64,000 bases of DNA from Waterburya sp. (GCA_965217895.1 CBDCJV010000002.1:1216001-1280000), one strand, 5' to 3'. Positions 6,029 to 22,002 are shown, counted from the first letter of the stretch. Notes: generated from the sequence alone by a model not told the origin. Translations and numbers: made by a program.

Positions 6029-8017
6029 ATGGTAACTCTCGAAAAATATTCCGTAATTGTCTCTAGCTGTAAAAATAGTCCCATAGGAAAACATTTGCCC
6101 AATGCGCTGTATGTACATAGTGATGCTCTTTTGCATCTCGATCCTCTCCTAAAAGACTATGAGCGTCAGGCAAGAAGCCTAGTAGAAAATACTGACAACG
6201 CTACTATCATCAAATTTGGTATAGATCGTCCTAAAATTTCTTATTTATATTATCCAGACTTTGACCTCGATCCTCATCCTCAACTACACCAAAGTGTTGT
6301 GGTAGATTTAATCAGCGAACAGGTAACAGTCCGACAGTATCATAATTCTCATAATCCGCCAATTCTCCATCGCAAAGAAACCTTTATTACCGCCGATTAT
6401 CCTAATTATCAAACCTTCGCCGAATTAACTGAAGCAGAAGTAGCTTTAGGCTTATTAGATAACTCCCGTCACATTGGTACTTTGCAGGAGTGGACACGCT
6501 TATTACTACAACAGGGAATATGTATTGTGAATCATTATCTGGCTTGTCCCGTGGACTCTCCCCTTGCCAAACAGCAAACTGTCTTAATTGAAAGGCATAA
6601 AGCAGCTTTAAAACGCTCAGAATTATCTCGCCCTGTAAGGGTTGCCTTGGAAGCAGATTTATTTACGCCAGGGGCAACCTTTTTTGATTATGGTTGTGGT
6701 TGTGGAGAAGACGTAAAGCGCATTGCTGAACTGGGTTATGATAGTTCAGGCTGGGATCCTTATTATCGCCCTGATGCTCAAACAAAGTCGGCTGACATTG
6801 TTAATCTAGGTTATATTATCAATGTGATTGAGGATATGGTCGAACGACGAGAGGTTCTGCTTAATGCTTGGGAATTAACTCAGCAGGTGTTGATAGTTTC
6901 GGCGCAAGTCCTGGTTGACGATCGCCGTCGTGGTCTAATTGCCTACGGCGATGGCGTAGTTACTAACCGTAATACCTTCCAAAAATATTACGAACAGGAA
7001 GAACTAAAGCTATACATAGAGCAAGTATTAGGGGCTGAAGCAATTCCTGGGGGCTTGGGCATTTATCTTGTATTTCGTCACGAAGATCGAGCAGAATCTT
7101 TTCGTGCTATCCGCGTATATTCTCGCCTGAGTACTCCTAGGGTTCAAGCTCAAGTTAGAAATTTTGATGACTATCGAGAGTTGCTAACTCCTTTAATGGA
7201 TTTCTATACTAAAAGGGGTCGCTTACCAATCAAAGGCGAAATTGCTTCAGAAACCGCGATCAAAGCCGAATTTCGCAGCTATCAGCGGGCATTCAAGGTA
7301 ATCTTACAGGCTACAGATAGAAAAGAATGGGAGGAGATCGCCGAAAAACGTCGCCAAGATCTCTTAGTCTATTTAGCATTGGGCAAATTTAGTGGTCGTC
7401 CTACCATCAGAAAGCTAGCACCTGAAGTCAAAGCCGATGTCAAAGCTTTGTTTGGTAACTATAAACAAGCCTGTACTATAGCCGATTTCTTACTAGTTCA
7501 AGTAGGAGACATGAAGAAAATCGCTAACCTCTGTGAAACTAGCAACATTGGTAAACAGCTAAATGATGCGATCGCCGTTCACGTTAGCGCACTCGAAAAA
7601 CTGCCTCCCTTACTACGACTATATGAAGGCTGTGCTAGTCGCAATTTCTACCGCTTAGAAAACGCCAACATTGTCAAACTATACTACAACAAGCCAAAAA
7701 TAACCTACCTAGTTTATCCAGAATTTGACACTAAAGCCCATCCTGCTTTACAGGCAACAATGGAAGTAGATTTACACAATCTATCTGTCACCTATCATGA
7801 TATTTCTGATGAGACTAACCCGCTAATTCTGCATCAAAAAGACACCTTAGTTGCGCCAGACTATCCTAGTTACAACAAATTCGTTCGACTAACCAAAAAA
7901 GAACAAAAATCAGGCTTACTAGAAAATACAGATGCTATTCGTCGTCTTCATGGCTGGATGCGCTGTCTTAGAGAACATGAAGTGAAGATTGAAGGACACA
8001 AACTTAGTAATCAATGA
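6029..8017 (+). CDS. DNA phosphorothioation-associated putative methyltransferase
   Basis: IERHKAALKR..LSRP, FFDYGCGCGED (SAM motif), GWDPYY, NLGYIINVIE, TFQKYYEQEEL; duplicated N/C-terminal domain. Confidence 0.8.
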   Translation: MVTLEKYSVIVSSCKNSPIGKHLPNALYVHSDALLHLDPLLKDYERQARSLVENTDNATIIKFGIDRPKISYLYYPDFDLDPHPQLHQSVVVDLISEQVTVRQYHNSHNPPILHRKETFITADYPNYQTFAELTEAEVALGLLDNSRHIGTLQEWTRLLLQQGICIVNHYLACPVDSPLAKQQTVLIERHKAALKRSELSRPVRVALEADLFTPGATFFDYGCGCGEDVKRIAELGYDSSGWDPYYRPDAQTKSADIVNLGYIINVIEDMVERREVLLNAWELTQQVLIVSAQVLVDDRRRGLIAYGDGVVTNRNTFQKYYEQEELKLYIEQVLGAEAIPGGLGIYLVFRHEDRAESFRAIRVYSRLSTPRVQAQVRNFDDYRELLTPLMDFYTKRGRLPIKGEIASETAIKAEFRSYQRAFKVILQATDRKEWEEIAEKRRQDLLVYLALGKFSGRPTIRKLAPEVKADVKALFGNYKQACTIADFLLVQVGDMKKIANLCETSNIGKQLNDAIAVHVSALEKLPPLLRLYEGCASRNFYRLENANIVKLYYNKPKITYLVYPEFDTKAHPALQATMEVDLHNLSVTYHDISDETNPLILHQKDTLVAPDYPSYNKFVRLTKKEQKSGLLENTDAIRRLHGWMRCLREHEVKIEGHKLSNQ

Positions 8018-8079
8018 ATAATAATTACTATTTAGTCTGGTGAGCATGAGCGATCGCCCACAAAACTGTTGGTGAGCCG

Positions 8080-8292
8080 ATGTACCAAGAAAATCGCTTC
8101 AATTCCTTTTCCACTCATTTCCTAAAGATAATGACGCTCTTTTTTACCCCGATAGACTACACGGCATTAAAACCTCGCCAGAAAGAAAACTACAAGTTTC
8201 AGAAGGTTTCGGCTGTTCTCGCTGATTATGGTTTCGCCACAATTCGACTGTCTGATGACTGGCAGGGTATTGACGCTGAAGCTAGCGTTTGA
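8080..8292 (+). pseudogene. Probable truncated hypothetical protein (possible nuclease-fold fragment)
   Basis: RQKENYKFQKVSAVLADYGFATIRLSDDWQG resembles the N-terminal part of a conserved hypothetical family, then stops abruptly. Confidence 0.45.
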
Positions 8293-8393
8293 CGTAACTT
8301 CTAATGCAGATAACCACCAAATGTGCTTAAGCGGGCGAGTCATTTTTTGATGGTTGCTTTACTCCGCCCACATAGCGATTCGGAGCGTTACGT
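8292..8393 (+). other. attC-like imperfect palindrome
   Basis: ACGTAAC (8292-8298) right at the ORF stop and its exact complement GTTACGT (8387-8393); internal GCGGGCGAGT/ACTCCGCCC complementarity. Confidence 0.4.
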
Positions 8394-8443
8394 TTTAAGT
8401 GATGGCACTAGTTTAAGAGTTACTCGTTTTCTCAGAAAGCGTA

Positions 8444-8473
8444 TTGACAATGTAAATACGTTTTACTTATACT
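8444..8473 (+). promoter_or_regulatory. Sigma70-type promoter of the TA operon with palindrome in the spacer
   Basis: TTGACA (8444-8449), 18 nt spacer, TATACT (8468-8473); GTAAA-N5-TTTAC at 8452-8466. Confidence 0.7.
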
Positions 8474-8480
8474 ACAAAGT

Positions 8481-8777
8481 ATGGATGTGTATTTCGTGCT
8501 GAATGGCATCACTTTTGTTTGGAACGACGAGAAGGAACAAAGCAACCCTGGTAAACATAATAGAATTACGTTCCAGCAAGCTGCGGAAGCCTTCTTTGAC
8601 CCCTTTCTTATTGTGGTTGATGCAAGTCGCAACAATCAAACAAGAGAAGCGGTAATTGGTATGGATCGCCAATGGAATTTGTTGTACGTGGTTCATATTG
8701 AAAGCAAGGAAAGTGTCATTCGGATTATCTCTGCCCGTAAAGCAACCCCACAAGAGCGAAAAGACTATGAAGATTGA
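8481..8777 (+). CDS. BrnT family ribonuclease toxin
   Basis: FVWNDEKEQSN..KH..ITFQQAAEAFFDP...IRIISARKAT..ER. Confidence 0.88.
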   Translation: MDVYFVLNGITFVWNDEKEQSNPGKHNRITFQQAAEAFFDPFLIVVDASRNNQTREAVIGMDRQWNLLYVVHIESKESVIRIISARKATPQERKDYED

Positions 8778-9051
8778 AGCATTGAAAAAGCGATTAGACA
8801 AAAACCGTCCGATGACGAGTGTAACGATTCGGATTCCTGAAGATGTAGTAGAAGATTTAAAGCGGATTGCGCCGTTATTAGGCTTTTCAGGTTACCAGCC
8901 GTTGATTCGTGCTTACGTTGGTCAGGGATTGCGAACCGATTTAGAGCGATTCGAGAGCGAAACAGTAACAGCGTTGATCGCCAGCTTAAAGCGACGGGGT
9001 GTGAGCGAAGAAGTCATTGACCAAGCGTTGAGTGAAATTGTTCATAGCTAG
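8767..9051 (+). CDS. Cognate antitoxin (ribbon-helix-helix-like)
   Basis: Overlaps the toxin stop; SVTIRIPEDVVEDLKRIA...GYQPLIRAYV; start taken at ATG 8767 (MKIEALKK). Confidence 0.8.
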   Translation: MKIEALKKRLDKNRPMTSVTIRIPEDVVEDLKRIAPLLGFSGYQPLIRAYVGQGLRTDLERFESETVTALIASLKRRGVSEEVIDQALSEIVHS

Positions 9052-12288: not shown

Positions 12289-15200
12289 ATGGCTTTTGCA
12301 TCGGTAGTACGGACGATAGAAAAATCGCCTTTAACCAGAGAATTACTAACCAAACTAGATAAAGGGCAGTCATTGTTGCTTAATGGCATACCACGTTTAC
12401 CAAAGGGAATTGTTAGCTCTAGTTTGGCAAAAGCTAAAGACAAAAACTTATTTTTAGTTTGTCCTACCTTAGAAGAGGCTGGACGTTGGGCTGCCCAATT
12501 AGAAGCAATGGGATGGCAGACAGTAAATTTTTATCCCACTTCCGAAGCAAGTCCTTATGACCCATTTGACCCCGAATCTGAGATAACTTGGGGACAGATG
12601 CAGGTTCTTTCAATTATCAATTATCAATTATCAATTATCAATGAAGAAGACGATTCTAAACCGATCGCTATTGTAGCCACAGAGCGATCTCTTCAGCCTC
12701 ATTTGCCACCTCCAGAGGTTTTTGAGTCTTATTGTTTGACCTTACAGCAGGGCATGGAATTGACCTCAAAGCAGCTAGATGAATCTTTGGTTAGATTGGG
12801 TTATGAGCGAGTAGCTTTGGTAGAAACAGAAGGGCAATGGAGCAGAAGAGGCGATATTGTGGATATCTTCCCAGTTTCGGCAGAATTACCCGTGAGGCTG
12901 GAGTGGTTTGGGGATGAGTTAGAAAAGTTAAAGGAGTTCGATCCTGCTACTCAAAGATCTTTAGATAAACTGGAGCAGTTGTTGTTAACGCCAACTTCTT
13001 TTAGTAACATAATTGCTAACAGTATTTTGGAAAATGGTAAGAGTATTGAAAGCTATTTGGATGATGAAGAATTAGAAGCTCTACTTGAGGGAAATCCTCC
13101 AGAAGGGATGAGACGTTTTTTAGGAATTGCTTTCGCTCGACCAGCTTCAATTTTAGATTATCTACCTGATAATACTTTAATAGCTATTGATGAATTAGAA
13201 CAGTGTAATGCCCATAGCGATCGCTGGATAGAATTAGCTCAATCTCAATGGCAGAGTTTAGAACCAAGTTTACCCAAAATTCACGCTGAGTTCCAAAGTT
13301 GTTTAGCTAAAACTAATAAGTTTGACTGTATTTATTTATCAGAAATTGCCGAAGAAAAACCTCGTTTAAATATAGCCAAACCTGATACAGTATCGGTACA
13401 CAATTTACAGGCGCGTCCGATTCCTACTACTCCTAATCAGTTTGCTAAGTTGGCTAGTATCCTGCGAGGTAAAAGAGAAATATATAGCGGAATGACGTTA
13501 GAAAAATATCAGACTTGGTTGATTTCGGCGCAGCCTAGTCGTTCGGCTTCTCTATTACAAGAACATGATTGTCCCGTTCAGTTTATTCCCAATCCTCAAG
13601 ACTTTAGGGCAATAGAAAAAGCTCAAATTCAAAGTACAGCCGTAGCAGTAAAATATTCTGGTTTAGCAGAATTAGAAGGCTTTATTTTACCGACTTATCG
13701 GATTGTCATTGTTACGGATAAAGAATTTTTTGGACAGCAAATTTTAGCCACATCTGGCTATATCCGTAAGCGTCGCCGAGCTACTTCTAAAAAGGTCGAT
13801 TTAAATAAATTACGTCCTGGGGATTATGTGGTACATAAACATAGTGGCTTAGGTAAATTTATTGAGTTGGAAACTTTAGCTCACCGTGAATATTTAGTAG
13901 TTCAATATGCCGATGGAACTTTAAGAGTTCCTGCTGATTCTTTAGATATGCTGACGCGGTTTCGACAAACAGGTAAGCGTCCACCAGAATTAAATAAAAT
14001 GGCAACTCAGTCTTGGTCAAACACTAAGACTAAAGTTAAAAAGAATATTAAAAGATTGGCAGTAGATTTATTAAAACTCTATGCTAAACGCTCAAAACTA
14101 GAAGGTTATGCCTATCCTCCTGATAATCCTTGGCAACAAGAATTAGAAGATTCATTTCCCTATCAACCTACCCCAGATCAACTAAAAGCCACCCAAGATA
14201 TCAAGATAGATCTAGAAAGCGATCGCCCGATGGATCGGCTTGTATGTGGTGACGTGGGTTTTGGTAAAACGGAAGTGGCAATTAGAGCAATTTTTAAAGT
14301 AATTACCAGTGGTAATAAACAGGTAGCGTTTCTTGCACCCACAACTATTCTGACGCAACAGCATTATCACACCCTCAAAGAAAGATTTGCACCCTATCCA
14401 ATTAACGTCGGCTTATTAAATCGTTTCCGCACTGCTTCTGAGAAAAAAGAAATTATGCAACGGCTGGCTACGGGTGAATTAGATATCGTAGTCGGTACAC
14501 AGCAGCTATTAAACAAAGATGTCCAATTTAAAGACTTAGGAATGCTAGTGGTAGATGAAGAACAACGGTTTGGAGTAAATCAAAAGGAAAAAATTAAGGC
14601 GTTCAAATCTCAGGTAGATGTTTTAACCCTCTCAGCGACTCCCATACCCCGCACATTATATATGTCCCTGTCGGGAATTAGGGAAATGAGCTTAATTACC
14701 ACGCCTCCTCCATCTCGTCGCCCAATTAAAACCCATCTTTCCCCCTATAACCCTGAAGTAATTCGCAATGCCATCCGTAACGAATTAGATCGGGGTGGAC
14801 AAGCTTTTTATGTTGTTCCTAGAGTCGAAGGCATCGAAGAAGTTAGCGCGCAGCTACGAGAGATGATTCCTAATATCAAAATTGCGATCGCTCACGGACA
14901 GATGCCTGAGACGGAATTAGAATCAACCATGCTTACTTTTAGTAACGGCGAAGCGGATTTACTACTTTGCACCACCATCATTGAGTCTGGTTTAGATATT
15001 CCCCGCGTCAACACAATTATTGTCGAAGATTCCCAAAGATTTGGCTTATCCCAACTGTATCAGTTAAGAGGTAGAGTCGGACGAGCGGGAATTCAAGCCC
15101 ACGCATGGTTACTATACCCCAGTAAACAAACTTTATCAGATCAGGCTCGCAAAAGACTTAGAGCTTTACAAGAATTTAGCCAGTTGGGTTCAGGTTATCA

Positions 15201-15816
15201 ATTAGCCACAAGAGATATGGAAATACGTGGTGTGGGTAGTCTATTAGGCGCAGAACAATCTGGACAAATAACTAACATTGGCTTTGAACTCTACATGGAG
15301 ATGCTACAAGAAGCAATTCAAGAGATTCAAGGACAGGAAATACCTAAAGTCGAAGATACCCAAATAGATCTTAAGCTTACCTCTTTTATTCCCGCCAGCT
15401 ACATCGCCGATCCTGGACAGAAAATGGATGCCTATCGCGCGATCGCCACTGCATCCTCGAAAAAAGAACTGGTACAGATTGCAGCCGAATGGGAAGATCG
15501 TTATGGTGCAATTCCCTCCCCGACTCAACAGCTAATTCAGGTAATGGAATTAAAACAAATAGCTAAGGCGATCGGCTTTTCCCGTATTAAGCCTGAAGGA
15601 CAAACAAATATTGTCTTAGAAACCCCGATGGCTGAACCTGCTTGGAATTTATTAGCGGAGAATTTGCCGAAGCACTTGCGATCGCGTTTTGTATATGCGC
15701 CAAAGAAAGTGATTGTGCGCGGTTTAGGTATTGTTAAACCTCAAAAGCAACTGGATAATTTGATTGACTGGTTGGGTACAATCCACAAGGCTTTACCTGA
15801 ATTAGAATTAGTTTAA
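12289..15816 (+). CDS. mfd: Transcription-repair coupling factor
   Basis: [44 protein letters not shown]-terminal TRCF domain. Confidence 0.98.
12610..12642 (+). repeat. CAATTAT heptamer, about 4.5 units, inside mfd
   Basis: tcaattatcaattatcaattatcaattatcaat encodes [11 protein letters not shown]. Confidence 0.9.
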
Positions 15817-15833
15817 GTAAGTAGAATTAAAAA

Positions 15834-16313
15834 ATGAACAGTCAACTTAAGCAACTTTATCATCAGGATTTAAATCTTTGGCGCGAAAAGATTGTAACCG
15901 CCATTCAAAATAGGAAACTAGAAAACATGGACTGGGACAATCTGATCGAAGAAATTAATGATATGACAGCAAGTGAGAGACGTGCTTTACGCAGTTATAT
16001 CAAAAGACTGATAGAGCATATTCTCAAGCTTAAGTATTGGCGAGCGACCCCGCGCCGACGCAAGGCGCAAGGGAATGCGCGAGATGAAAATGAACGAGAA
16101 TATAATCGGCGAGGTTGGGAAAAAGAAGTAGTTAATTTTCGTGAGGAAGTTAAGAGTATTTTAGAAGAATCTCCTAGCTTGAATAGTTATTTAGAACAAA
16201 ATTATTTTGACTGGTACGCAAAATCAGTTAAAGCAATGAAAAGAGAGTTTTCTATTCCTGACAATAATTTAGTAGATTTAAACTTAATTATGACTGACGA
16301 TTATTTTGCATAA
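15834..16313 (+). CDS. DUF29 family protein with an in-frame 39-bp insertion
   Basis: LYHQDLNLW, DWDNLIEEI, LIEHILKLKYW, ILEESPSL; GC-rich insert 16040-16078. Confidence 0.88.
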   Translation: MNSQLKQLYHQDLNLWREKIVTAIQNRKLENMDWDNLIEEINDMTASERRALRSYIKRLIEHILKLKYWRATPRRRKAQGNARDENEREYNRRGWEKEVVNFREEVKSILEESPSLNSYLEQNYFDWYAKSVKAMKREFSIPDNNLVDLNLIMTDDYFA

Positions 16314-16461
16314 TCCGTCCTTTAGATTTTTAATCGCCCGATCATTTATGCGCTGAAAAAAGTTGATTTATGAGAAAACTATTTAGTCAAATAGCAAGCT
16401 TAGCAAAATATATTCTTTATGGCTTTTAAGTTAACTTAATTTTTTTTAAAATCATGCATAA

Positions 16462-18048
16462 CTATTCTATTTCCTCTCTATCAAAAATATCAAGATACTT
16501 AGCTAAAGTAAATTCTGGATCTTGTTGAAAATGTCTTGGAGCTTTGAAAAGTTCTATACCTATGTCTTTAAATATTTCCTGTTGACTATTTAAGATTGAT
16601 TTGAAAAATTGATTTTCCTTGATATTTAAATTTTCAATTAATTCATTGAGTTTTTCTGAATTTATTCCTAACCTAAGATATCTAGAAAAAAATATGAGCC
16701 ATACAATTTCAAAAATAGAACCTTTTCTAGAAGCTCTTAAAATTTCATTTTCAATAGTAGATTTTAAATAGTTTTTTAGTTCAGAACAATCTTTGCTATA
16801 GTCAATATATAATTGTTCTGAGATAGATAAAACGTGACACAATAGTTTTTCAGATTCTCTTTTTACAAGAAAAAGTAAACTAATTACTTGTTTAACTTCT
16901 CTGATTCTTTTTTGGTTATTTTTTGAAAAAATAATTTTCAGTTTCTTTTCTTTATTTGGATTGTTCTTGGTAAAGCATTCTGATATAAATTTTTCTAAAA
17001 TGCTAGTTCCAGGACACTTGCGGTGAATATCGAGAGCAATTAACAATGTATGCTCAAAACATTTAAAAGTTATTTCGTTTCTATTTTTCAAGCTATGTGG
17101 AAAGTAATCTCTATCATGCTTTCTGTAAAGACCATCAGGCAATTTCTGAATCGAGGTCTTATTCTCATTAATTGATAAATTATATGCTAAAAGATTTTTT
17201 GCCAAAGCCTTCAATATTTTTTCAGCATCAGCTTCACAGTCACAGAGAATTCTATAATCATCTTTAAATCTAACTGCAAGAAAATCAATATCTTTCAGTT
17301 CTTCTGAAGTATTTCTGTCAATTTTGGATAAAATAATTTCTGCAATTAAGTCACTTAGTACAGAACCTATTGGAATCCCATTAGTTCCTCCATCATTAGC
17401 ATATTGTATGAGCTTGTCTATCTTGTTACCAAAAAAGCTCATCTCACGATCTCTTAATGCCTTATCTCTACCATGCAATGCCCATGCAATGCTATGAGTA
17501 TATATGGATGAATAGAAATTAGTAATATCGGTACGTACAATATATTGATAATGTTTGGCATCCAATACTAAATCTTTTTCTGCCATTGTCAGCCATTCAT
17601 ATATCATTCTCCCTGTACGTAAACTACTCAATCCAGCTTGGTTTCTATTCTTTTTTGTCAAGGCAATAGGAAAACTATAAGAATATATCTTATTTTCTTC
17701 ATGAAAAAGATGGCTTATCACCTCATCCCAGTTTTTTTCTATGTAGAAAACAATATCATGAAAATTGTATGGATGCTGAATACTAAATATTCTAGAGCTA
17801 AGATTAGTCTTCGGATGAGAGATGTTGATAAGTTGCCTTCTTTTTAACTTACATAAGTTTTGTTTGTAAGGTTGATCTTGAAGAACAAAATTAGCAACCT
17901 GAAAGGATGGTGGTAGTATATATTGCTCTGCAAAATATCCTTGGTTAAGTATCCAGTTAGCTATTTCTTTTGATGGAATATCTTTGACAAGATCTCTAGT
18001 TTCTTTGAAATGGTTTATAACATATACTTCATCACCGAGCATCATCAT
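16462..18048 (-). CDS. Stand-alone reverse transcriptase, AbiK/UG-like (probable anti-phage)
   Basis: RTDITNFYSSIYTHSIAWALHG, TNGIPIGSVLSDLIAEIIL, VRFKDDYRI, LSINENKT; about 200-aa probably helical C-terminal extension; very AT-rich. Confidence 0.88.
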   Translation of the reverse strand: MMMLGDEVYVINHFKETRDLVKDIPSKEIANWILNQGYFAEQYILPPSFQVANFVLQDQPYKQNLCKLKRRQLINISHPKTNLSSRIFSIQHPYNFHDIVFYIEKNWDEVISHLFHEENKIYSYSFPIALTKKNRNQAGLSSLRTGRMIYEWLTMAEKDLVLDAKHYQYIVRTDITNFYSSIYTHSIAWALHGRDKALRDREMSFFGNKIDKLIQYANDGGTNGIPIGSVLSDLIAEIILSKIDRNTSEELKDIDFLAVRFKDDYRILCDCEADAEKILKALAKNLLAYNLSINENKTSIQKLPDGLYRKHDRDYFPHSLKNRNEITFKCFEHTLLIALDIHRKCPGTSILEKFISECFTKNNPNKEKKLKIIFSKNNQKRIREVKQVISLLFLVKRESEKLLCHVLSISEQLYIDYSKDCSELKNYLKSTIENEILRASRKGSIFEIVWLIFFSRYLRLGINSEKLNELIENLNIKENQFFKSILNSQQEIFKDIGIELFKAPRHFQQDPEFTLAKYLDIFDREEIE

Positions 18049-18112
18049 TTTATTCTTTAGGATATTTACTTCATTCTCAAAATGCCATGAAATAAAAATG
18101 TCGGGTGTGATC

Positions 18113-18235
18113 TATAGCGTTTCTCTTATTTACGAGATGCACTTTAGTTGTGTCTGGTTAAGGGGAAAAGGCAAAAGTTTTGCGCTGTTTTCCAGAACTT
18201 AGCTAATGTACCTCATTGATTTGAGAATTGCTATA
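18113..18235. mobile_element. MITE/REP-like 123-bp inverted-repeat element
   Basis: Ends TATAGCGTTTCTC...GAGAATTGCTATA with nested internal complementarity; same TATAGC/GCTATA termini at 31709-31814. Confidence 0.65.
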
Positions 18236-18254
18236 AAGTTTGAGCTATGTTAGG

Positions 18255-18395
18255 TTAGCTAATGCCTACTTTATACGATACTAGTTCTGAAGTTAATTTC
18301 TCGATCCTCTTTTTTAACCCTTCTTGTTCTCTTTTGTCTCTAATTTTGCTCAACAATTCTATTGCTAGAGGAGTAATTTCAAGTTTGTATTGCAT
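18255..18395 (-). pseudogene. Truncated RelE/ParE-family toxin
   Basis: Not in ORF track. TAATG overlap with the antitoxin stop; MQYKLEITPLAIELLSKIRDKREQEGLKKRIEKLTSELVSYKVGIS* (46 aa) lacks the C-terminal catalytic half. Confidence 0.7.
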
Positions 18396-18658
18396 TACCA
18401 ACCTAGCTTTTCTTGAGCCTCCTCCCAGCTAATTGTTTCTCCAGCCTGATCTTGTTGAATGCTTGCAGACAATAGTGAACTAAATTCTTTATCTTCTAAA
18501 ATTTCCAAAGTTTCTAATAAACATTTCATTTGCTCGTAACTAACCGTTACCATTACAGGCTTACCATGTTTAGTAATAATTATAGGTTCGTCAATTAATT
18601 CATCAGGTAAACTTAGAAAATTTTTTCTGGCTTCTGTAATGGTGAGATATTTTGGCAT
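18395..18658 (-). CDS. Phd/YefM family antitoxin
   Basis: TITEARKNF, PIIITKHGKPV, LETLEIL; ATG at 18658 preferred. Confidence 0.9.
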   Translation of the reverse strand: MPKYLTITEARKNFLSLPDELIDEPIIITKHGKPVMVTVSYEQMKCLLETLEILEDKEFSSLLSASIQQDQAGETISWEEAQEKLGW

Positions 18659-18666
18659 GAAGACTA

Positions 18667-18697
18667 AATGTACGCTCAAGTGTACATTCAAATTATA
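18667..18697 (-). promoter_or_regulatory. -10 box and palindromic operator of the Phd/RelE operon
   Basis: TATAAT on the minus strand (18692-18697) followed by AATGTAC-N8-GTACATT (18667-18688). Confidence 0.6.
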
Positions 18698-18720
18698 ATG
18701 TGATTTGAAGACTAAGGTGT

Positions 18721-18791
18721 GCGATCGCTTAATCGCCTATATGCCAAAGAGAGAATCATTGTGCGTGGTTTGGGTATTGTTAAACCGCAAA
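18721..18791 (+). repeat. Degenerate direct repeat of a segment near the mfd 3' end
   Basis: 18758-18791 matches 15712-15745 at 31/34; both copies preceded by HIP1 (18721-18728, 15678-15685). Confidence 0.85.
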
Positions 18792-18815
18792 TATCTTAAC
18801 CCAAACTAACGTTAT

Positions 18816-19778
18816 TTATGACATCTCCAACATTCTCTGAATAGGTTTTAAGGCTCTGGTGCGAATATCTTCAGGTAAAGTAATTTCTGGGGTTTTATTT
18901 TTCATCGCCAAGTAAAGCTTCTCTAATGTATTCAGGCGCATATAAGGACATTCATTACAGGCACAGTTATTCATAGCTGGAGCAGGGATAAAATACTTAT
19001 TAGGTGCAGCTTTTTCCATCTGGTGAATGATTCCTGGTTCTGTAGCGACGATAAACCGATCGCTACTGCTTGTCTGACAGTATTTTAATAAAGCCGTAGT
19101 TGAACCAATAAAGTCGGCATGGCGTAATACAGGAGATTCGCATTCAGGGTGAGCAATCATTTCGGCGGTGGGATGCTCAACCTTTAATTCAATAATTCTC
19201 TTTTCTGAGAAAGTTTCGTGAACAATGCAGCTACCTTGCCATAAAACTAAGTCTCTACCTGTTTTTTCGCTAACGTAACGACCTAAATTCTTATCTGGGG
19301 CAAAAATAATTGGCTGATTTTTTGGGATTTGATTAACTATCTTTACCGCATTAGAACTAGTACAAATAATGTCACTTAAAGCTTTGATTTCAGCAGTACA
19401 GTTAATGTAAGAAATAACTATATGATCTGGGTGAGCTTCTTTAAAAGCCTTAAATTCTTTTGGTGGACAACTATCAGCCAAAGAACAGCCAGCTTCAAGA
19501 TCGGGTAATAAAACCAACTTGTTAGGATTGAGTATCTTCGCGGTTTCTGCCATAAAATGCACTCCCGCAAAGACAATTACCTCCGCATCAGTATTAGCAG
19601 CCTGCTGAGACAAACCCAAAGAATCGCCTAGATAATCGGCAATATCTTGAATGTCTGCTTCCTGGTAATAGTGAGCTAAGATTACGGCGTTTAACTCTTG
19701 CTTTAGCTTATTTATTGCGCCAAATAAGTCATTAGGAATCTCGTAAGGGTTTGCTTTAGGTTTAGCTGCTGTAAACAT
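18816..19778 (-). CDS. nadA: Quinolinate synthase
   Basis: [35 protein letters not shown]. Confidence 0.97.
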
Positions 19779-19915: not shown

Positions 19916-20614
19916 TCAAGAATATAGCCAGCTATCAACTATTCTCAATATAGTTTTATCACCCAAGCCTCTAACATTTTCTAATACTTCGGTTAATGAT
20001 TTAAAAGGTCTTGCTTCGATAATTTTAGGAGCTATATCGTTAGCTTTTTTATCTGATCTAAGAATTGGTTTTAATTTACTTACTAGCTCAATTAAGCTAG
20101 CATTATTAAAAGTTGTCAAAGGCTCTATTTTTTCAGGAAGCTTGTTTTTAAGAGAGTCAATTTCTTGCTGTAATTTTTTATTATTTTGAGTATATTCACT
20201 TTTTAATTCATTTAGTCGATTTTCTATTCTTGATTCAATATTGGTTAAGCGAGTTTCTAAATTACTTGTATCACGGTTATCTTTTTGATCTGGTTTTGGT
20301 TTTGAAGGATTACGAAATATGGCAACCTGATCTTTTAATATTGCTTCGTTTTTGTCTTCAATAATATATGCTGCGATCGCTTCTCCGATTTCTAGATTTA
20401 ATTCTCTTGCTCTTGCTGCTGCATAATATTCAAAATGTCCATCTATTATCTGAAAAGAATTGATGCCTGTTCGACTTACTATTAAAGGATTAATTATGCC
20501 TTCTGCTGCCACTATTAATTTAGCAGCCTGTTCTATTTCCTGTTGATCAAAATTAGAACGAGGGCGATCGCAAGTTATGGTTCTAACTTCAACTAATGAT
20601 GATGATAAAGTCAT
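19916..20614 (-). CDS. ParB/Srx-like N-terminal domain + coiled coil + helix-hairpin-helix protein
   Basis: GIINPLIV..FQIIDGHFEYYAA; coiled coil LETRLTNIESRIENRL; C-terminal NNASLIEL...RPFKSLTEVLENVRGLGDKT. Confidence 0.7.
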   Translation of the reverse strand: MTLSSSLVEVRTITCDRPRSNFDQQEIEQAAKLIVAAEGIINPLIVSRTGINSFQIIDGHFEYYAAARARELNLEIGEAIAAYIIEDKNEAILKDQVAIFRNPSKPKPDQKDNRDTSNLETRLTNIESRIENRLNELKSEYTQNNKKLQQEIDSLKNKLPEKIEPLTTFNNASLIELVSKLKPILRSDKKANDIAPKIIEARPFKSLTEVLENVRGLGDKTILRIVDSWLYS

Positions 20615-22002
20615 GCTACTCCTATTTTTTTCAATACTTCAGTTGCCAAGTTTTCAAATTCTTGAGAAGATTTAGAATTAGGGCTATAGTCTAATACAGA
20701 TCTAGGATCGGGCATTTCTATTTCACCGATAAGTTGAACAGCATCAGAGCATTTAGCCAAATCTTCACGTTGAAATATAGTGGTGCTTAATAACGGTAAA
20801 CTATATTTATTGGTTATTTTAGATAATTGTTTTGGCAATGTATGCTGAACAAATTTGGCATGAGTTGATATTTTACAGGGAAGAACCCCAATTATTTCTA
20901 ATGGTTTTTGATTAATTACTTTCTTAGTAGCGTTAATATCTTGAATAAAGTTTTTGACGTTTACTAATCCTTGGTTAGCAAAAGGTTTCAAGTCCGAAGG
21001 AATTAGTAAATATTCTGCTGTAATTAAAGCAATTCTGGCATATAGATTTAAAGACGGAGGAGTATCAATTAAAACAATATCATATTGGTCTTTAACTTCT
21101 TTTAGCTTTTCTCGCAAAGTAAAATTTATTGAAGCTAACTGATTTAATCTATTTTCCTTCTCCATCAAACTTATATGAGCAGGAATAATATCAACTGTTG
21201 GAATACAAAAATTAGATGTTACCTTAATATCTTTAATTGGATAGGACTCTGAAAATCCTATAACATGAGATACGTTTGCTTTTTCAATATAATCATCAAA
21301 CTCATCATCAAACTTAACTAAACCTGTAGCAAAAGTTGTATTTGCCTGACTATCTAAATCTATAACTAATACTTTTTTACCTTTCTTACTCAGTGCTGCC
21401 GCTAAATTAACTACGGTAGTTGTTTTGCCTACACCACCTTTATTATGATATACCGCTATGATTTTCATATTTTGTTTTATTGATACTTTAGTTACCGTAG
21501 AAGTACTGCTAATAATTGCTTCCCTTGTTTGCCTATTATTTTTCCTTAGACTATCTTTCCCAATTAAAGCTTTAATATTAGCAATATTATTATCAATCTC
21601 ATTTCCGCCACATTGGAATAATAGTTTGGGAGAATTGGGTAATAAACCTTGAGACAATTCTGGAGATATTTCTTTCTGATAAATTCTAAAGTCTCTACTG
21701 TTAGTCAAAACTCCATACTGTACAGATATAGTATGTAGATATCTATTAAATTGCGCTAGATGATTGTCTAAATTTTGTTTTGGATGCTTTGTTTCTACAA
21801 TTAGACTACGATCTAAATTTATCTTTTGTTGGTTATAAACAATCGGTTTGCTCAAGATCAAGAAGTCCAGACGAATATTGCGAATAGTTACTTCTTCATA
21901 CCAACTATCAGGAGAATAGCCTAATCTTGGCAACAAATAGTGAACTATTAGCTTGCTTCTTACTTCTGTTTCATTACGACAATAATGATGATTAAAACTC
22001 AA
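20611..22002 (-). CDS. HsdR_N-like nuclease domain fused to ParA/Soj ATPase
   Basis: NETEV..KLI..LL..LGY, RLDF, IVETK, QFNRY, GVLTN; then KGGVGKTT, IDLDSQAN, IDTPPS. Confidence 0.8.
   Translation of the reverse strand: MSFNHHYCRNETEVRSKLIVHYLLPRLGYSPDSWYEEVTIRNIRLDFLILSKPIVYNQQKINLDRSLIVETKHPKQNLDNHLAQFNRYLHTISVQYGVLTNSRDFRIYQKEISPELSQGLLPNSPKLLFQCGGNEIDNNIANIKALIGKDSLRKNNRQTREAIISSTSTVTKVSIKQNMKIIAVYHNKGGVGKTTTVVNLAAALSKKGKKVLVIDLDSQANTTFATGLVKFDDEFDDYIEKANVSHVIGFSESYPIKDIKVTSNFCIPTVDIIPAHISLMEKENRLNQLASINFTLREKLKEVKDQYDIVLIDTPPSLNLYARIALITAEYLLIPSDLKPFANQGLVNVKNFIQDINATKKVINQKPLEIIGVLPCKISTHAKFVQHTLPKQLSKITNKYSLPLLSTTIFQREDLAKCSDAVQLIGEIEMPDPRSVLDYSPNSKSSQEFENLATEVLKKIGVA

Follow-up and report, generated by a model that had tools for sequence, protein, structure and literature searches.

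A UG14 reverse transcriptase gene in an islet at the mfd 3′ end of a Waterburya chromosome, and HIP1 sites at the edges of local repeats

An islet next to mfd carries a reverse transcriptase gene

The window, by which we mean the whole 64,000-nucleotide stretch of Waterburya sp. DNA analysed here, comes from the chromosome of a HIP1-rich cyanobacterium that carries approximately 5,800 sites for HIP1, the cyanobacterial palindrome GCGATCGC. On the minus strand, positions 16462–18048 encode an intact reverse transcriptase (RT)-like protein of 528 amino acids, with no stop inside the 528 codons, that matches the PADLOC profile RT_UG14 (E 5.1e-191) and exceeds the cut-off of the Pfam RVT_1 model (E 5.5e-13). 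The GC content of the gene is 29.4%, compared with 39.1% for the chromosome, and equally low values occur in 0.12% of equal-sized blocks. An earlier note on this DNA had described an AT-rich RT gene of this length, and every motif that it quoted is present: GYFAEQYILPP at residues 37–47, DITNFYSSIYTHSIAWALHG at 174–193, GIPIG at 224–228 and RFKDDY at 260–265. The tail of about 200 residues that it reported corresponds to a helical region at approximately residues 310–524. Xenococcaceae are the source of the closest named homologues among the matches listed.

The RT gene lies in an islet of approximately 3 kb that begins at the stop codon (position 15816) of the gene that we take, from its motifs, to be mfd (12289–15816), and that ends at a displaced copy of the mfd 3′ end; the gene beyond is, on the same basis, presumably nadA. 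The duplicated segment runs from the last HIP1 site of mfd (15678–15685) to its stop (15678–15816, plus strand). Its decayed copy (18720–18791, plus strand; 79% identity over 72 nt) starts at a HIP1 site (18721–18728), forms the far edge of the insert and is the sole second copy in the genome. Between these borders are a DUF29 gene convergent with the RT gene (15834–16313, plus strand; Pfam PF01724, E 2.8e-32), a Phd/YefM antitoxin gene (18395–18691, minus strand; PF02604, E 8.3e-14) and a truncated ParE-type toxin gene (18255–18395, minus strand). DNA alignment to two relatives (G006 and G021) reveals the truncation: 46 codons remain, compared with 101 amino acids in the G006 protein, which matches Pfam ParE_toxin. 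The position of the toxin 3′ half is taken by a MITE-like element of about 124 nt with short inverted ends (18112–18235), of which four near-full copies (83–92% identity) and five partial copies exist elsewhere in the genome. A gap of 63 nt separates this element from the start of the RT gene. The element disturbs the upstream region, so expression of the RT in this host is uncertain. A promoter scan gave chance-level results (15 predicted, 13.3 expected), and no terminator was found.

The RT falls far under the cut-offs of retron, group II intron, DGR and CRISPR-RT profiles, and Rfam gives zero matches in positions 15500–19000 at E ≤ 0.5. These results and the identities of the neighbouring genes agree with the earlier statement that no group II intron, cas gene, DGR or retron effector lies nearby. 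The description of a single-gene Abi/UG-type RT in an accessory insert likewise stands. Two other parts of the window carry genes of related interest. Positions 19916–22002 hold an AT-rich pair: the first gene joins an HSDR_N nuclease-like domain to a ParA ATPase, and a ParB-domain gene follows. At 6029–9051, a phosphorothioation-associated putative methyltransferase gene (TIGR04096) precedes a small gene pair that appears to resemble BrnT/BrnA.

The RT is assigned to UG14

The match to PADLOC RT_UG14 (PDLC03751) scores 634 bits and aligns residues 11–524 with profile positions 5–492/493. The runners-up are Drt6 (235 bits), Drt4 (202), AbiP2 (197) and AbiK (127), and no NCBIfam RT model passes its own cut-off with this query. 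To place the protein among its relatives, we used a homologue search that found 1290 proteins among 7996 scored candidates. A tree was built from 94 long proteins, drawn from the best 150 cluster representatives, plus the query (95 in all). Labels were given by best PADLOC profile rather than by the sequences of Mestre and colleagues, the UG14 proteins scoring more than 330 bits, and yielded 32 UG14, 29 Abi-P2-like, five DRT6-like and two DRT4-like proteins and 26 without a strong family. A quick LG+G4 tree places the query in a clade of 33 rows that includes every one of the 32 proteins labelled UG14. The SH-aLRT value of this clade, 88, lies below 95, and its labels derive from the same profile. 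DRT6 and DRT4 are split from UG14, the unnamed rows and Abi-P2 with support of 100.

Membership in the neighbouring characterised families was ruled out case by case. The RT reaches 197 bits with the Abi-P2 profile, compared with 467–648 for the 29 Abi-P2-labelled proteins, which form a separate clade with support of 100. Its Drt6 score of 235 bits compares with 494–560 for the five Drt6-labelled proteins, which also lie in another clade. For DRT4, the NCBIfam model gives 162 bits against a cut-off of 450 and the protein falls outside the DRT4 clade, and the AbiK profile gives only 127 bits.

We conclude that the RT is almost certainly a member of UG14, a group already catalogued. UG14 was listed by Mestre 2022 (PMC9226505) as a predicted defence group with a defence association of at least 0.15. 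The protein shares with UG14 as catalogued (PMC9226505; PDLC03751) the full-length profile match, the single-gene arrangement, FKDD and a tendency to occur in defence islands; there is no difference of substance, the group itself being described in that source as predicted only. A search of the open-access and bioRxiv literature returned neither experimental work on UG14 nor a later DRT name for it, and the group appears not to have been tested experimentally. The possibility of an uncharacterised clade is rejected by the 634-bit match and by the position in the tree, and the suggestion of an undescribed system gives way to a group that already had a name.

The 26 RTs without a strong PADLOC family (labelled MID, P0170–P0256; best scores approximately 185–295 bits) lie between UG14 and Abi-P2. 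Nineteen of them form one clade (SH-aLRT 98), and these proteins may be an unnamed group.

The predicted fold resembles DRT6, DRT4 and Abi-P2

The structure predicted for the RT (mean pLDDT 90.3, pTM 0.90) has a C-terminal domain at approximately residues 310–524 (16477–17121, minus strand) that is nearly all helix. DSSP assignment of the model and whole-chain superposition identify this domain as alphaRep-like; a C-terminal domain of helical repeats is a feature of Class 1 UG/Abi RTs. Superposition on DRT6 (9wy8) gives Z 27.8 and an rmsd of 3.0 over 434 aligned residues, followed by DRT4 (9vdo; Z 27.7) and Abi-P2 (7r08; Z 26.4). All three superpositions span the whole chain (rmsd approximately 3, 429–439 residues aligned), and a Foldseek ranking agrees that these are the nearest folds. 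AbiK (Z approximately 21) and AbiA (Z 13.8) score lower, and in templated RTs (Z 13.7 or less) the RT core alone superposes. The kinship with AbiK, AbiA and Abi-P2 claimed earlier holds as far as the Abi/UG type is concerned, but the tree and the fold place Abi-P2, DRT6 and DRT4, not AbiK, as the nearest characterised relatives.

Each of these systems shares part of its architecture with the UG14 protein. Of the proteins with solved structures, Abi-P2 (7r08; PMC9508834) matches best in sequence (E 4.8e-27), and it has in common an aromatic-basic-DD loop, an Asp at the position of D233 and a two-lobed fold. In contrast, identity over the structural alignment is approximately 19%, the clades are separate, the loop is YRDD rather than FKDD, and Abi-P2 primes on Tyr61 in a fingers loop where the UG14 tyrosine is variable (Y61 in 63/104). 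DRT4 (UG15) and DRT6 (UG12) are likewise encoded by single genes and have the same fold (Z 27–28). In addition, DRT4 residues H160 and D192 are kept as H185 and D211, and a tyrosine lies near the DRT4 priming position. Identity to these systems is nonetheless 20–22%, the x of their YxDD is hydrophobic, and the base-contacting DRT4 residues N124, N285 and D286 are absent in our protein. AbiK and AbiA combine an RT core with a helical domain, and in AbiK a motif aromatic (Tyr245) is reported to stack on the product, but both are more distant and AbiA carries a HEPN fusion.

The catalytic loop

The catalytic Asp triad is complete. D263 and D264 belong to the loop F261-K262-D263-D264 (17257–17268, minus strand), which aligns with YRDD of Abi-P2, YIDD of DRT4 and YVDD of DRT3b. 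The third Asp is D174 (17527–17529, minus strand). An alignment of close homologues (109 of the 120 listed, 11 shorter ones omitted) has RFKDDY in 104/109 rows. In a wider UG14 set the loop is FKDD in 94/104, YKDD in nine and FRDD in one, with lysine at position 262 in 103/104. Abi-P2-like proteins have YRDD (25/29) or FRDD (3/29), with one degenerate loop. Position 262 is lysine in 31/32 UG14 proteins and arginine in 29/29 Abi-P2-like ones; the first loop position varies among DRT6-like rows also. Proteins P0191 and P0207 and one row of the close-homologue alignment have YKDN or FKDN in place of a loop ending in DD.

The non-canonical FKDD site pointed out in the earlier note is thus real but not private, being clade-wide and near to the Abi-P2 YRDD. 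With RFKDDY in 104/109 and FKDD in 94/104 rows, a private or degenerate site is rejected. Judged from the alignments, FKDD reads as a signature of the UG14 clade and not as evidence for new chemistry, and the presence of YRDD in Abi-P2 means that a basic residue at this loop position is not new. In DRT4 the loop tyrosine is reported to stack on the base of the product (bioRxiv 2026.10.21.760695), and in AbiK Tyr245 is reported to stack on the product (PMC9508834). By analogy, F261 would stack on the primer base and K262 would be the counterpart of the Abi-P2 arginine.

It had also been proposed that the loop lysine alters nucleotide preference. In DRT4 the residues held responsible for base choice are Q23, D29 and N124 (bioRxiv 2026.10.27.754916), and in DRT3b they are E22 and R241 (PMC13174585); the available part of PMC13314766 names no gate residues. 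Because base choice in these solved relatives is assigned to residues outside the YxDD loop, the proposal, though conceivable, finds no support here.

Neighbours of UG14 genes

To search for conserved partners, we compared 81 loci, comprising the best 80 of 236 confirmed loci and the window. Each neighbour cluster is confined to 7/81 loci or fewer, and type I restriction subunits are the commonest of those that recur. Flanking sequence is shared little among 72 loci (14 matches on each side, a few close pairs only), and both-side spacing is below 100 nt in 4/57 loci. The limited sharing, and the existence of loci with so little room on either side, give no indication of a required ncRNA. The conserved neighbours or upstream ncRNA envisaged earlier were therefore found neither in these 81 and 72 loci nor by Rfam.

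Immediate neighbours were scanned at 73 loci (126 of 128 neighbours, two RT fragments being omitted, after five near-duplicate loci were dropped). A named defence gene (E 2e-20 or better) adjoins the RT in 17/73 loci, a raw count with no background rate, and the types are restriction-modification, DRT8, AbiU, GajA, PD-Lambda-3 and ThsA-like. The number rises to 27/73 when PADLOC candidates and generic domains are counted, leaving 46/73 with none. In one locus (L039:7639–9228), a DRT8 RT lies directly downstream of the UG14 RT. Three enterobacterial loci (L017, L023 and L027) have a gene for 195–197 amino acids, without a PADLOC match, 1–4 nt downstream of the RT gene, and this is possibly a local partner.

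Within the host family, matches above 300 bits occur in 6/61 genomes, of which four are whole, one is cut by a contig end and one is half a gene. Close cyanobacterial UG14 copies follow other core genes, which we take to be aconitase-like (L002, L003 and L008) and smpB-like (L006 and L033). The location of UG14 copies after different core genes indicates that several insertion slots are used.

A proposed mechanism and its alternatives

Our printed alignments reproduce the published numbering of DRT4 (D240/D241) and DRT3b (D182, R241 and Y276), and residues of the RT can therefore be mapped onto these relatives. DRT4, DRT6, Abi-P2, AbiK and AbiA are all reported to make protein-linked, untemplated ssDNA (PMC12783706, PMC9508834), with priming sites that differ between relatives (PMC12783706). 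The explanation that best accounts for the whole, and that we consider likely, is a stand-alone UG14 RT of the Abi-P2/DRT6/DRT4 branch that makes protein-primed ssDNA and acts by abortive infection. Taken separately, template-free protein-primed polymerization is highly probable by comparison with these relatives, and an anti-phage role is quite probable. The functional guess of the earlier note probably holds.

The helical tail takes the place of a thumb, and the protein would form an oligomer, a trimer or hexamer judging from its relatives. A three-copy complex prediction limited to residues 300–524 scored 0.00, a value that counts neither for nor against assembly. The polymerase would prime on a tyrosine of its own and extend a short protein-linked ssDNA without a nucleic-acid template. 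The best candidate for this tyrosine is Y150 (17599–17601, minus strand), to which phmmer aligns DRT4 Y125; the register is ambiguous, as profile and multiple alignments place Y125 at 152–153 (W152), three residues off by profile. Y150 is put forward because it is conserved in UG14 (100/104 rows), follows a low-confidence loop of the model (145–147) and is uncommon at the same column in other groups. Y124, kept in 102/104 rows, is a second candidate from the alignment. Y61 (the Abi-P2-like position), Y308 and the C-terminal Y518 were rejected as too variable.

The trigger may be a phage ssDNA-binding protein or raised dNTPs, after which the cell would arrest in an abortive infection. The reported RNase pair of DRT4 is H160/D192 (bioRxiv 10.64898/2026.10.21.760695, citing earlier work), and by alignment its equivalents are H185 (17494–17496, minus strand; H in 102/104 UG14 rows) and D211 (17416–17418, minus strand; D in 104/104). 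Because of this match, a DRT4-type RNase is the most likely effector, although the RNase step as such has something less than an even prospect of being correct. Abi-P2-like and DRT6-like proteins conserve this pair just as strongly and DRT3b has it too, and a pair common to all groups may be structural.

A somewhat unlikely alternative keeps the same polymerase and assigns defence to the ssDNA itself, which would accumulate or sequester phage SSB or annealing proteins, H185 and D211 being structural. Toxic ssDNA accumulation has been proposed for DRT4 and DRT6 (PMC12783706), and all groups sampled retain the YTH..W and LD blocks. Against this, activated DRT4 is reported to cleave RNA in two 2026 preprints (bioRxiv 2026.10.21.760695; 2026.10.27.754916), and the His/Asp pair is nearly invariant in the UG14 rows.

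Protein templating of the DRT3b kind is improbable; here UG14 would produce DNA of a fixed or strongly skewed sequence by way of invariant residues around the pocket (E41, D233 and R309) or of K262, the lysine raised in the earlier note. D233 is aligned with R241, the dC gate of DRT3b, and the four positions are near-invariant in UG14 rows (E41 102/104, D233 103/104, R309 104/104, K262 103/104). E41 is absent from the common residues of Abi-P2-like proteins, and lysine or arginine at 262 divides the two groups. However, Abi-P2-like proteins likewise have D233 and a basic residue at position 262, and the products of Abi-P2 are described as random (PMC12783706); in the available text on solved relatives, base choice is nowhere assigned to the x of YxDD.

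Least probable, and quite unlikely, is a polymerase that is active but has no anti-phage role, serving DNA repair or travelling as a selfish passenger, or else a gene that is silent in this strain. In favour of such a reading, most immediate neighbourhoods (46/73) are not of defence type, broken or partial copies exist (the half gene in G021, a fragment in G013, and split L004, L005 and L022), and the toxin gene upstream of the RT is disrupted in the window. Against it, all characterised members of the branch are described as defending against phage (PMC9226505, PMC12783706), the corresponding slot next to the toxin-antitoxin pair is occupied in G019 by a type ISP restriction gene, and UG14 is spread patchily across many phyla.

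HIP1 sites at the edges of repeats

The slot at mfd is variable among relatives. In G006 and G021 the RT is likewise flanked by mfd and the same toxin-antitoxin pair, only a fragment is present in G013, and in G019 the toxin-antitoxin pair is followed by the type ISP restriction gene. A survey of 20 further stretches, which were fetched because of matches and are not a random sample, together with the window contains 22 displaced mfd copies in 11 genomes. Of the 20 copies that lie wholly inside their stretch, 14 start within the interval equivalent to 15675–15688, at the last HIP1 of mfd, yet just 5/22 retain the full octamer, so HIP1 conservation does not explain the edge. Cargo between or beside the copies includes long Argonaute, Uma2, XisH/XisI, PIN, MazEF, an AbiEii-type ATPase with DUF3226, and DUF29. 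The array of copies in G008 lies approximately 30 kb from mfd and is inverted.

Long Argonaute genes occupy the slot in four relatives (L113:11688–13838, L115:4308–6449, L120:9582–11723 and L130:4887–7031); PAZ and Piwi were confirmed on the L113 protein, whose N-terminus the other three share. In G017, G019 and G020, mfd and nadA are close and differ from the window in relative orientation, so the slot has undergone an inversion.

To determine how general such edges are, we collected local direct repeats across the genome (35–400 nt, gap of at least 200 nt, at most four copies), which gave 153 low-copy repeats from 389. HIP1 lies at an edge in 49/153, compared with a mean of 9.4 and a maximum of 20 in 200 random shifts and with 4–18 in local shifts; about six of these 49 repeats represent paralogue pairs, and several lie in clusters. 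A stricter set, restricted to pairs of at least 80% identity and merged within 5 kb, comprises 49 loci and leaves the window pair (79%) outside. HIP1 is at an edge in 19 of these 49 loci, an enrichment of approximately sixfold over random placement (mean 3.0, maximum 11 in 500), and 43 control hexamers of like abundance reach a mean of 2.4 and a maximum of 6. Inside the repeats HIP1 is at background (nine observed, 8.9 expected). Many edges are sharp, with identity of 0.9–1.0 inside and approximately 0.25 outside. Among downstream same-strand partial copies of ORF ends, 12/43 begin no more than 3 nt from a HIP1 start.

Examples of HIP1-edged repeats on G000:C2 are 127980–128775, 1450031–1451539, 2554595–2555819, 4470718–4471631, 2376931–2384537 and 3523780–3525541. 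Such repeats bracket inserts of 0.2–6 kb, whose content is often a single small gene or a pair of them, either toxin-antitoxin-like or unknown, and two clusters resemble nested arrays.

The HIP1-edge pattern is statistically firm in one genome and is repeated at mfd across the genus. The enrichment suggests HIP1-anchored cassette capture, and the geometry fits either a homologous crossover combined with a HIP1 joint or small circles integrating at HIP1. On one side, incoming DNA would pair with homologous sequence that runs through a core-gene end; on the other, it would join at a HIP1 site inside that gene. Each event would add 0.3–6 kb of cargo and displace the old gene end downstream. Repeated events would build arrays containing the UG14 RT, long Argonaute, type ISP restriction, PIN, MazEF, ParE, XisHI and Uma2, and dozens of such capture scars would be spread across the genome. 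The RT would have arrived as cargo in the variable slot at the mfd 3′ end, with a HIP1 site as the far edge. We therefore put forward, tentatively, that cassette capture in these cyanobacteria needs no integrase and uses HIP1 as its joint, that it builds integron-like arrays at mfd and elsewhere, and that the UG14 RT is a putative DRT4-like polymerase-RNase so delivered.

HIP1 at the edges might instead be a by-product, arising because alignments end at a conserved octamer or because a frequent motif offers microhomology, with the inserts due to ordinary island integration or illegitimate recombination. This alternative is possible, although we regard it with some doubt. In its favour, 30/49 repeat loci have HIP1 at no edge, and in G006 the RT directly follows an mfd that lacks this particular HIP1 site, while the remaining 3.4 kb of the contig contain no displaced copy. 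Furthermore, a HIP1-edged repeat around the RT is absent from seven other family-level UG14 loci, save a weak 35-nt pair in G006. A by-product is harder to reconcile with background levels inside repeats next to a sixfold rise at edges that control hexamers do not approach, with the sharpness of many edges, and with mfd copies that start in an octamer that most of them no longer keep whole.

The capture proposal has partial precedent. HIP1-flanked excision in smtB and plasmid recombination in PCC 7002 have been reported (PMC4390886, PMC13756078), and these HIP1-linked events in cyanobacteria likewise have joints at GCGATCGC. A HIP1 site ending a homology arm is reported to raise transformation up to 83-fold (bioRxiv 2024.09.10.611283). 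What differs here is the genome-wide insertion scar, consisting of a gene end, cargo and then HIP1 with the old gene end, together with the tandem arrays at mfd. No description of HIP1-edged cassette scars was found in the available portions of the literature searched.

Concluding remarks

The RT is in itself ordinary: it has more than 1,000 relatives, and its group was named in 2022. UG14 is nevertheless a seemingly untested branch between Abi-P2 and DRT4/DRT6, and is of value for this reason: residues D263/D264, Y150, H185/D211 and E41/D233/K262 bear on the generality of the DRT4 RNase switch and on the DNA product. The islet outweighs the RT in significance, because its sharp HIP1 edges bear on the open question of HIP1 function, which a 2026 paper calls “largely elusive” (PMC13756078). 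If the proposal is true, HIP1 capture would be direct genomic evidence for that function. Displaced gene ends starting at HIP1 could reveal new cyanobacterial defence hotspots, and the HIP1-edge pattern may show the route by which such defence genes enter.
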